Source of the DNA: a virus
Length of the DNA stretch: 64,000 nt
Reading direction: 5' to 3' (one strand)
Virus record (IMG/VR): IMGVR_UViG_3300021197_001635
Coordinates: 64,001-128,000 of that record
Positions within the stretch are counted from its first letter, which is position 1, and each line of letters begins with the position of its first letter. The notes below the pieces were generated by a model. It was not told the origin of the DNA and made no database searches. It saw nothing but the letters and a program-made list of their open reading frames with translations. Position numbers and translations under genes: made by a program. This document shows positions 19,934 to 22,296 of this stretch, in pieces.

Positions 19934-20215
19934 ATGAAGAATAAAATCGTACTTGAAATCACATTAGAGAGCGAGGCCTATGTGGATGAGTTCAAATCGG
20001 ACCCCAACCGCACCATGGATCTATGCCCTATTGATATGATGAAAATGATTGCAGGACAATGTAGACTTCCTTGGATGACCCACGGTATTAAAACGGTCAG
20101 ATGGAAAGAGCAGAGTCAGGATGAACAATATGAATTCGATGTGTATCGACTTCAGTATGCATATGATGATATAGGACAAAAGGACAAGACCAATGAGAAC
20201 AGCAATAACGTTTGA
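19934..20215 (+). CDS. Hypothetical protein
   Basis: GAGG RBS; overlaps the guaB start. Confidence 0.55.
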   Translation: MKNKIVLEITLESEAYVDEFKSDPNRTMDLCPIDMMKMIAGQCRLPWMTHGIKTVRWKEQSQDEQYEFDVYRLQYAYDDIGQKDKTNENSNNV

Positions 20216-21290
20216 TGACGTTTTAATCGTCCCACAATATAGCGAAGTGACACCAGACATGGTGTCGACCAAGACCACCTTGGTAAAGGGAATCGAACTG
20301 GATATCCCAATTATGTCCGCACCGATGGATTCGGTGACAGAGGTCGAAATGGCAACAGCGATGGCTGAAGAAGGTGGTATCGGCATCCTACACAAGAATA
20401 TGGGTCATGACGAGCAGATACGGCAGGCCTATGAGATTAAGAAGTGGGGTCATAAGTTGGGTGTCGCCCTGAGTCCTACCAAGTACACCGACAGGATGAT
20501 CGAAGAGCTAGTTGATGCTGGTATCGACGTGTTCGTCCTTGACAGTGCACATGGTCATTCTAAGAACGTGATTGAAGCAACTGAGCGACTTAAGAAGCTC
20601 ACTGATGTTCCAGTCATCGTTGGTAACATTGCAACCGCAGGAGCCGCTATAGAACTCTACAATGCTGGTGCTGATGCCCTAAAGGTGGGCATCGGTCCTG
20701 GCTCCATTTGTACGACGAGAATCGTAGCGGGTGTGGGTGTCCCCCAAATCACCGCTATTCAGGATGTTGCCAGTGCCAATGGAGGCAAACTCGACATCCC
20801 CATCATTGCAGACGGTGGTATCCGATACAGCGGCGATATCGCTAAAGCCATCATGGCAGGTGCGAGTTGCGTGATGCTAGGCTCCCTCCTTGCAGGACAT
20901 GATGAAGTCCCCAACTATCAAGGTGTCATCATTGACGGCAAGCGGTATGTCCCTTACCGTGGAATGGGAAGCGAAGGAGCAATGGGTGACGGTTCTGGAG
21001 ACAGATACAGTCAAGACGGCTCAGATAAGTTCGTCCCTGAGGGCATCGAGGGTTGCGTCCCTTATAAGGGTGCAGTTGCGGACACCCTCTACCAGATGGT
21101 CGGTGGTCTAAAGTCAGCAATGGGTTATGTCGGTGCTGCAACGATTGAAGACCTTATTAAGCAGGGCGAAAGCTACTATCACATGGAAGGGTTCGTAGGG
21201 GTAAGTCCTAACTCCCTGCGAGAGAACCACCCACACGATGTCCACATCACCAAGGAAGCACCAAACTATGCAACAGCAAGCACTTCATGA
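20193..21290 (+). CDS. guaB: IMP dehydrogenase (no CBS domains)
   Basis: [44 protein letters not shown]. Confidence 0.93.
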
Positions 21291-22296
21291 CTTCATCAAG
21301 ACAGTACCAAAGGCAGAACTGCACCTCCACATCGAGGGTACACTTGAGCCTGAGTTGATGTTCCAACTAGCAGAACGGAATGGTATCGAACTGCCCTTTT
21401 CCTCCGTGGATGAGGTCCGTGCAGCCTACGAATTCAATAATCTGCAATCTTTCTTGGACATCTACTATCAAGGTGCTAACGTGCTGGTCACGGAGCAGGA
21501 TTTCTACGATCTCACATGGGCATACTTCTTAAAGTGTAAAGAGGATAATATCGTCCATGCTGAAATCTTTTTCGATCCACAAACCCACACCGATCGCGGT
21601 ATCCCCTTCGACACCGTGATTAATGGCATCTTTTCAGCCACGGTAGATGCAAACGACCAGCTTGGGATCTCCTCTAAGATTATCATGTGCTTCCTCAGAC
21701 ACCTTCCTGAGAAGCGTGCAATGATCACACTAGCCGAATCGCTTTCGCACAAAGATAAAATCATCGGAGTAGGCTTAGATTCATCAGAGGTAGGCAACCC
21801 ACCTGCCAAGTTCTATCGGGTATTCGCAAAAGCCGCGGAAGAGGGTTTCGAGCTAGTAGCACACGCAGGAGAAGAGGGACCACCCAGCTACATTGGGGCA
21901 GCGTTAGACATACTCAATGCAGTGCGTATAGACCATGGAGTACGTTGCTTAGAAGACGAACAGATCGTCCACAGGCTGGTTGATGAAATGATACCACTTA
22001 CCGTATGCCCCCTGTCAAATGTGAAATTACGTGTATTTGATAAGCTCGAAGATCACAACTTACGTACAATGCTTAATAAAGGTATATTCGTCACAATTAA
22101 TTCAGATGACCCAGCCTATTTCGGTGGATACCTAAACGAGAATTATATCCAATGCCAAAAAGCACTTGATCTTACAAAAGAGGAAATAGTCACACTGGTA
22201 ACAAATTCCTTTTCTGCATCATTTTTAAGTACAAAAGAAAAAGCAAAATGGATTGATAAGATCAGTTCTCAGTATGCATTTTTGAGCATGGTCTGA
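21268..22296 (+). CDS. add: Adenosine/adenine deaminase
   Basis: [51 protein letters not shown]. Confidence 0.93.

Follow-up and report, generated by a model that had tools for sequence, protein, structure and literature searches.

The window analyzed here is a stretch of 64,000 nucleotides that covers bases 64001-128000 of a single virus record (IMG/VR record IMGVR_UViG_3300021197_001635, here called G000), which is 136,012 bp long, with a GC content of 43.0% and a completeness of 75% (CheckV). The record represents a marine T4-like phage, with genes for gp23, gp20, terminase, sheath, baseplate, gp32, gp41, gp61, UvsX/Y/W, the clamp and its loader, RegA and a family B polymerase. We studied two overlapping genes in the window, for an IMP dehydrogenase (IMPDH) and an adenine deaminase, which in an initial annotation of the DNA had been proposed to form a purine funnel feeding PurZ. 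Both open reading frames (ORFs) are located on the plus strand in the ORF list, at the same positions as in that annotation. In window coordinates, the features of the pair are:

20193..21290, plus strand: predicted IMP dehydrogenase, catalytic barrel only, 365 aa (PF00478), with a short linker in place of the CBS/Bateman domain
21268..21290, plus strand: overlap of 23 nt between the 3' end of the IMPDH gene and the 5' end of the deaminase gene, also a recombination break between G000 and the related contig G001
21268..22296, plus strand: predicted adenine deaminase of the Pa0148/3OU8 subgroup, 342 aa (352 aa from ATG 21238; NF006850, PF00962)

The product of the first gene matched PF00478 with 417.5 bits (E 5e-125), residues 4-348 aligning with profile positions 1-345 of 345. 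The match to TIGR01302 (390.6 bits, below the equivalog cut-off of 481.5 bits) fell into two stretches that skipped profile positions ~100-215, owing to the missing CBS region. The score to NF005311 was 349.7 bits, as compared to 162-200 bits for the GMP reductase models, and in a search of the PDB the solved IMPDHs scored 315-405 bits and the solved GMP reductases 245-249 bits; the identification of the gene as a GMP reductase was rejected on these model and PDB scores. The top solved relative was the CBS-deleted IMPDH 4q32, which aligned in a single stretch (404.9 bits), while full-length solved IMPDHs aligned in two pieces with their CBS region skipped. Solved CBS-less forms such as 4q32 are presumably engineered deletions; a short natural IMPDH among the solved structures is 1eep (404 aa), which we take to be from Borrelia. 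No match to PF00571 (CBS) was obtained in the phage protein or in 24 short relatives in the IMPDH tree, whereas full-length relatives carry this domain. The catalytic Cys loop (C173) and the flap GSGDRY (R271, Y272), the roles of which are known from other IMPDHs, align with those of the solved IMPDHs and do not vary among five phage copies. The first gene is thus predicted to encode an IMP dehydrogenase barrel that has lost its Bateman domain, and the absence of this domain is a feature that the initial annotation did not mention.

The catalytic barrel is 50-60% identical to that of bacterial GuaB, with the catalytic loop and flap motifs kept, but the phage protein is entirely without the Bateman/CBS pair. 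A PF00478 barrel without CBS is also found in the GMP reductase-like dehydrogenases of large phages (Bacillus phage G, Cr30, XacN1; phrog_9582), and the IMPDH matches phrog_9582 with 364.7 bits. Those proteins are, however, only 30-35% identical to the IMPDH of G000, and several are annotated as GMP reductase, which works in the opposite direction. IMPDH makes XMP from IMP, which is the committed step to GMP. Passages in PMC9462843 describe this as the rate-limiting step of the guanine pathway, and bacterial IMPDH as subject to inhibition via its regulatory domain, either by (p)ppGpp or by GTP in competition with ATP.

The product of the second gene scored 556.3 bits to NF006850 (cut-off 419) and 308.6 bits to PF00962. 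Among solved structures, it scored 430.6 bits to 3ou8/3pan/3pao/3pbm over residues 5-319 and 379.9 bits to 3rys, as compared to at most 119 bits for true adenosine deaminases. Residues H19, H21, H199, E202, H223, D280 and D281, which correspond to the HxH, H, E, H and DD residues that serve in metal binding and catalysis, align with 3ou8 and are invariant in nine phage and metagenome copies. 3OU8 is presumably Pa0148 of P. aeruginosa, which reportedly catalyzes the deamination of adenine. Adenine deaminases convert adenine to hypoxanthine and NH3.

An adenine deaminase of P. aeruginosa (Q9I6Y4) is mentioned in a section of PMC13316717 as an adenine-specific coupling enzyme, and in Table 2 of PMC6281700 activity on adenosine and AMP was not detected for the K. 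lactis enzyme. The second gene is best read as a probable adenine deaminase, with a substrate preference suggested by its proximity to this subgroup. It resembles the Pa0148-type (3OU8 group) and yeast Aah1-type adenine deaminases, but differs from them in being encoded by a phage and in overlapping an IMPDH gene. The identities put forward in the initial annotation, guaB and an adenine/adenosine deaminase, are therefore confirmed at the family level, the deaminase being nearer to the adenine deaminase subgroup than to true adenosine deaminases.

The IMPDH gene ends with a TGA stop codon at 21288-21290. With ATG 21268 as the start of the deaminase gene, which is preceded by AAGGAAG 11-17 nt upstream, the overlap is 23 nt, as had been noted previously; the longest version of the deaminase ORF (ATG 21238) would give an overlap of 53 nt. 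An IMPDH gene followed by an overlapping deaminase gene was also found in G001 (and in L196, a contig with the same alleles), G003, G004 and L197, as seen in the ORF lists for G001/L004, G003/L005 and G004/L002 and in the tblastn coordinates for L197. The adjacency is kept in five contigs despite shuffled neighbors; for example, a DNA methyltransferase gene lies upstream of the IMPDH gene in G001 versus a small ORF in G000. By their profile matches, both overlapping ORFs are real genes rather than chance ORFs. A scan for promoters and terminators in 19300-23100 gave counts no better than those in shuffled sequences. A TATAAATA motif, for which six matches were found in the window versus 2.3 expected, is located at 22886, downstream of the pair. 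As the pair overlaps and no late-promoter motif was found ahead of it, the two genes may be translated jointly, as the last of a block for replication and nucleotide metabolism, although the evidence for this is weak.

The initial annotation presupposed a PurZ in the same genome, and a homolog was identified in the window together with several other genes for nucleotide metabolism, of which two are located in G000 outside the window:

51547..52620, plus strand: PurZ (succino-amino-deoxyadenylate synthase), 357 aa (NF038379, phrog_1211, PDB 6fko group)
52617..53174, plus strand: adenylate-kinase-like NMP kinase (PF00406 E 8.6e-6, TIGR01351 E 8.6e-9, both under the cut-offs)
8571..9647, plus strand: GlnII-like glutamine synthetase (NF041605 403.2 bits, cut-off 500)
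11071..13008, plus strand: class II adenosylcobalamin-dependent ribonucleoside-triphosphate reductase (RTPR; GTP to dGTP; TIGR02505 307.8 bits, cut-off 340; phrog_367 623 bits)
G000 35846-37306 (L017:16446-17903), outside the window: PurB-like adenylosuccinate lyase (TIGR00928 284 bits, cut-off 326)
G000 43543-43944 (L018:4513-4911), outside the window: NDT-like protein, 133 aa (DUF4406 E 1.4e-17; phrog_355, nucleoside 2-deoxyribosyltransferase, 95.5 bits)

The top NCBIfam model for PurZ was NF038379 (215 bits, under the cut-off of 300), as compared to 144.9 bits for archaeal PurA and 114.6 bits for bacterial PurA. The score to phrog_1211 was 213.7 bits, and that to the PDB 6fko group was 194.8 bits versus ~56 bits for PurA of E. 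coli. The protein is 37-42% identical to the annotated PurZ proteins of phiVC8-like, K-series Vibrio and ZP6 phages. Section 4 of the preprint 10.1101/2025.10.22.683976 names residues that separate PurZ from PurA, and 8 of the 12 named residues are identical in G000 (S14, T262, F295, Y298, W252, Y244, P233 and I34 in VpPurZ). The serine at position 14 of VpPurZ is an aspartate in PurA; G000 has S17, T267, F300 and Y303 at the positions of S14, T262, F295 and Y298, and a tryptophan at that of F12. By this alignment, the PurZ of G000 keeps the residues for dGMP specificity.

The start of the kinase gene overlaps the stop of purZ, and the kinase gene directly follows purZ in all six related loci that extend far enough, which makes its product a candidate for a dedicated dZMP/dNMP kinase. 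Beyond it are an ORF for a 184-aa coiled-coil-like protein and a gene for a PD-(D/E)XK nuclease. We considered the 184-aa protein as a hidden DatZ or MazZ and rejected it, since it had no match in Pfam, NCBIfam or PHROG and no HD motif, and its alignment looks helical, of the coiled-coil type; an Atlas search yielded unnamed viral clusters only. On the other side, a small zinc-ribbon ORF (51022-51315) precedes purZ in 8 of 8 related loci. The PurB-like lyase is only 46-47% identical between members of the clade described below. The GlnII-like protein could supply glutamine for GMP synthase. A ThyX gene is also present in the window and a phosphate-porin-like gene in G000.

No HD or MazG domain was found by Pfam among the 139 called ORFs of G000, and DatZ and MazZ of phiVC8 and ZP6 gave nothing below E = 1 in phmmer searches against all 1372 stop-to-stop frames of the record, in which the PurZ control scored 1.3e-58. 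Likewise, neither PolA nor the family A DpoZ was found in this ~75%-complete record. G000 thus shares with the canonical Z-cluster (PurZ, DatZ and MazZ, with DpoZ, as in phiVC8, S-2L and ZP6-type phages) a PurZ with the residues for dGMP specificity and the same pathway logic, from dGMP through a succino intermediate to dZMP. It differs in that purZ is located in a T4-like myovirus with a family B polymerase in which DatZ, MazZ and PolA were not found, in the addition of a PurB-like lyase of the phage and, behind purZ, a kinase, and in the IMPDH and adenine deaminase, neither of which appeared for the groups of PurZ phages when organisms were tallied in the phage collection. The Wayne-like dZ phages, as described in parts of 10.1101/2025.10.22.683976, are also without DatZ and MazZ and carry an NDT, comparable to the NDT-like gene of G000, but have a primase-polymerase DpoZ and a dUTPase homolog. 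Their NDT is proposed there to deplete dA, and in section 7 of the same preprint the NDTs of dZ phages are said to prefer dA as the donor, which frees adenine.

We examined the co-occurrence of the pair with PurZ among the 80 best IMG/VR relatives by major capsid protein, of which the 13 on contigs of at least 23 kb were searched and the 67 on shorter contigs were left out, with G001 and G005 as positives. PurZ, IMPDH, the deaminase, PurB and GlnII were each absent from all 13 PurZ-negative T4-like relatives, three of which are at least 70% complete (70-100%) and nine under 40%. All five genes are present in G001, and all but the deaminase in G005, so that the phage-type IMPDH was found in both of the long PurZ-positive relatives and the deaminase in one. 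The PurB-like lyase and GlnII were found in none of the 14 other records searched. IMPDH, the deaminase, PurB and GlnII were not found in the available part of G006, a PurZ-positive fragment of 48 kb. According to the gene table, the annotated metabolic genes shared by G000, G001 and G005 but not by G012-G014 are those for PurZ, the kinase, PurB, IMPDH, GlnII and NDT; NDT is also found in G010 and RTPR in G014. The DNA polymerase of G000 is 74% identical to that of G001, 61% to that of G005 and 43-46% to those of the others where present, and the PurZ-positive records therefore form one fairly deep clade. The co-occurrence of add and guaB with purZ suggested previously is thus observed, at the level of one clade only.

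Scans of 2.9 million IMG/VR contigs with single proteins and alignments recovered the phage-type IMPDH only in G001, G003, G004, G005 and one contig of 18 kb, and the phage-type deaminase only in G001-G004. A metagenome scan added L196 (86.7 kb), L197, L198 and fragments, the remaining rows being full-length bacterial guaB. The IMPDH gene stands alone in the G005-type contigs L015, L187 and L198. In the G002 fragment, the RTPR gene (L003, 1-1487) is split into two frames that overlap near base 640-690, because of either a frameshift or an error in the assembly.

In the phage collection, the deaminase had nine matches. The closest (65% identity) were Acinetobacter phage MD-2021a contigs of up to 208 kb, in which the gene is annotated as add, and the remaining matches were to unannotated or fragmentary records. 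The MD-2021a contigs carry full-length guaB and add and look bacterial to us, and in our reading none of the nine matches is a genuine phage gene. The top matches to the IMPDH were either two-piece alignments to full-length guaB or alignments of 30-35% identity to phage GMP-reductase-like proteins. The only genus in common between the organism tallies for PurZ and those for the pair was Acinetobacter, from the MD-2021a contigs.

Phylogenetic analysis placed the CBS-less IMPDHs of G000, G001, G003, G004 and G005 together with eight metagenome proteins in one clade of 13 with an SH-aLRT support of 100, in a tree of 120 of the 120 best listed database matches and five phage rows. A second, separate clade of CBS-less IMPDHs consists of P0157, P0200, P0168 and eight others, with lengths of 354-364 aa; two of these are named as proteins of Bacteroidales metagenome-assembled genomes, and one is located on a contig of 127.5 kb. 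The phage deaminases are placed beside copies from Pelagibacteraceae and Halobacteriovorax in a set of 18 rows with a support of 98, in a tree of 89 rows (80 of 80 genome loci and nine phage and metagenome rows). This placement is a lead only as to the host, since members of the family from different phyla are still 60-70% identical, and a GC content of 43% is unlike that of SAR11. A quick tree set G002 apart from the other phage copies, as if the deaminase had been acquired twice. In an AU test, however, a tree constrained to keep all eight phage and metagenome copies together was better by 35.9 lnL units (p-AU 0.909), and the idea of two independent acquisitions was dropped. A single origin of all phage deaminase copies is not rejected.

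The two genes differ in their recent history. Between G000 and G001, the IMPDH protein is 98% identical, and the nucleotide identity over the gene is 94-100% in windows of 90 nt, with two windows at 87-88%, as compared to a background of 74-82% between the two genomes. The IMPDH gene has therefore moved recently between the lineages as a cassette. The homology begins 2 nt before the ATG of the IMPDH gene, the genes upstream of which differ, and the identity drops to 53-78% from ~21273, at the start of the deaminase gene. The deaminase proteins are 67% identical, and this gene has diverged along with the genome, unlike the IMPDH cassette. Protein identity to G001 rises to 92-99% in patches at 11071-14518 and 20191-21272 (RTPR, an 80-aa ORF, a phosphate-porin-like ORF and IMPDH), as compared to a background of 55-78%; such patches indicate recent recombination between the lineages of G000 and G001.

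The reading that we favor, with a confidence only a little better than even, is that the pair forms a deregulated funnel from adenine through hypoxanthine, IMP and XMP to GMP, which feeds dGMP to PurZ in a T4-like clade that makes Z (2,6-diaminopurine) nucleotides. Free adenine would come from the turnover of host nucleic acids and nucleotides, possibly also by release through the NDT-like protein of the phage, and would be converted by the deaminase to hypoxanthine and ammonia. Adenine would be useless to a phage with a Z genome, and its deamination would allow the host Hpt to return it as IMP. The phage IMPDH would then act as a feedback-blind valve from IMP to XMP into the guanine branch, since an enzyme that has lost the Bateman domain is proposed not to be shut down by GTP or (p)ppGpp. 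The host GuaA would produce GMP, perhaps aided by glutamine from the phage GlnII, the class II reductase of the phage would provide dGTP, and PurZ, the PurB-like lyase and the kinase encoded behind purZ would convert dGMP to dZ nucleotides. If A were fully replaced by Z in a genome with a GC content of 43%, G and Z together would make up 50% of the bases instead of 21.5%, and the flux through the guanine branch would therefore be ~2.3 times the normal. The deaminase is accessory in such a funnel, and a PurZ phage can do without it, as is seen from G005, which lacks it but has PurZ, PurB, GlnII and IMPDH. The substrates of the two enzymes, the direction of the flux and the link to PurZ are all predicted.

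Of the funnel as first proposed, the enzymes, PurZ and the co-occurrence hold up, while the replacement of DatZ and the premise of an AT-rich phage do not; at 43% GC, the latter was overstated. It had also been suggested that efficient destruction of diaminopurine by the deaminase would speak against the funnel. In Table 2 of PMC6281700, a yeast member of the family is listed with a deamination rate on 2,6-diaminopurine that is 86.5% of its rate on adenine, but this does not refute the funnel because the free base is not an intermediate on the PurZ route, and the suggestion is thus not valid.

Several observations weigh against the funnel. Because all positives belong to one clade, the co-occurrence counts as a single event, and any clade-specific gene would show the same pattern; nine of the negative relatives are moreover less than 40% complete. 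There is no deaminase in the 126 kb of G005, and in the G002 fragment the deaminase gene lies directly behind an HNH-like ORF, without an adjoining IMPDH gene, so that the two genes are separable. The 203 PurZ records of the phage collection showed no genuine overlap in the organism tallies with the 9 deaminase and 77 IMPDH or GMP reductase records, which suggests that the module is no general component of Z biosynthesis. A step of the MazZ type, for turning dGTP into dGMP, was not found in G000. IMPDH and deaminases have no mentions in the main text of the metagenomic dZ-association (metaGPA) preprint 10.1101/2025.10.22.683976. Finally, Z in DNA reads as A in sequence data, and its presence here is predicted from the genes.

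The strongest competitor, which we consider possible but clearly less probable than the funnel, is that the genes are auxiliary metabolic genes for general purine salvage, which would boost GTP and dGTP and reuse adenine to make ordinary DNA and RNA in a marine host short of nutrients, the link to PurZ being one of shared ancestry. Other nutrient-related genes are indeed present in the genome (GlnII, the phosphate-porin-like gene, RTPR and ThyX, and PstS in G001), the nearest cellular deaminases are from the abundant marine bacteria Pelagibacteraceae and Halobacteriovorax, and both the separation of the deaminase from PurZ in G005 and the lack of other PurZ phage groups among the records with the pair would be expected under such a role. 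It is less easily reconciled with the absence of IMPDH and the deaminase from the 13 PurZ-negative relatives, including the three that are 70-100% complete, or with the failure to find the phage-type genes elsewhere among the 2.9 million contigs, and draining adenine toward guanine runs against the demand of a normal genome with 43% GC. Nitrogen scavenging, in which the deaminase frees ammonia and GlnII fixes it into glutamine while IMPDH is incidental or only moves IMP derived from hypoxanthine, appears improbable to us. The release of NH3 by the deaminase reaction is established chemistry and only the PurZ clade carries the GlnII-like gene (403 bits to NF041605), but G005 keeps GlnII and IMPDH without the deaminase, and the deaminase is translationally coupled to IMPDH and not to GlnII, the gene for which is located 11 kb upstream. 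Furthermore, GlnII fits the funnel equally well because glutamine is the amide donor for GMP synthase.

The initial annotation had also suggested that the pair acts in place of DatZ, so that depletion of the adenine nucleotide pool would keep dATP out of the DNA, and this we regard as very improbable. The absence of a DatZ or MazZ homolog (phmmer E above 1; no HD or MazG match in Pfam) is what lends it support, along with an NDT-like protein that could turn dA into free adenine, yet the record is only ~75% complete and DatZ could lie in the missing part. The nearest characterized relatives of the deaminase act on the free base and not on nucleotides (PMC6281700, as given in Table 2), a sink at the level of the base cannot remove dATP as fast as replication proceeds, and G005 is without the deaminase.

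A broader version of the preferred funnel is that G000 represents a new, self-contained type of T4-like phage with a Z genome, in which the purine economy has been rewired and adenine is excluded at the level of the base and nucleoside instead of by DatZ, MazZ and DpoZ; we put this forward only tentatively and consider it rather unlikely. The NDT-like protein would strip adenine from deoxyadenosine and the deaminase would remove the adenine irreversibly, the feedback-blind IMPDH and the phage glutamine synthetase would push everything into GMP, and the class II reductase, PurZ, the phage PurB and the dedicated kinase would deliver dZTP to the family B polymerase.

The biosynthesis of Z genomes is usually described as PurZ together with enzymes that destroy dATP or supply dGMP, the upstream steps being left to the host. 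Our literature search found no report of a connection between PurZ and IMPDH, guaB or adenine deaminase, and none of PurZ in T4-like phages with a family B polymerase. If the funnel is real, some phages also control the branch point at IMP, through an IMPDH freed from allosteric inhibition, and recycle the adenine for which a Z genome has no use, which would extend the Z pathway upstream. It would further widen the range of PurZ to T4-like myoviruses that have a family B polymerase, and offer a natural example of a deregulated IMPDH, with parts that suggest themselves for the engineering of higher dZ incorporation.

The pair is preceded by one further feature:

19934..20215, plus strand: small conserved ORF, 93 aa (ATG 19934)

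The 3' end of this ORF overlaps the start of the IMPDH gene by 23 nt, and its longest version opens at 19892, within a tRNA-Leu gene. Genes for tRNA-Gly and tRNA-Leu are located just upstream of the run formed by the small ORF, IMPDH and the deaminase, and an Rfam search of the window identified five tRNAs and nothing else. A homolog of the small ORF lies directly upstream of the IMPDH gene in G003/L005 (72% identity) and ~3 kb away in G001; none was found in G005, and searches of Pfam, NCBIfam and PHROG gave no match.

Downstream of the pair, four ORFs rich in Pro and Gly (22985-24976) have no family match and no homolog in G001 or G005. The TATAAATA motif at 22886 is situated just upstream of this run, in which the neighboring ORFs at 24195 and 24635 share their first 17 residues, MSIYRKNDNIKSLTEAY. 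Outside the window, at ~43964-59958 of G000 (L018-L019), there is a large sugar-nucleotide and glycosyltransferase block with genes for a GDP-mannose dehydratase, epimerases, a GHMP kinase, a SIS protein, a cytidylyltransferase, a DegT aminotransferase and several glycosyltransferases, much of which is without counterpart in G001 and G005. Two long ORFs on the minus strand of the window, at 54379-58932 (1517 aa) and 61044-63125 (693 aa), had no match in Pfam or PHROG and no homolog in the six related records compared, and may encode variable tail-fiber or host-range proteins.

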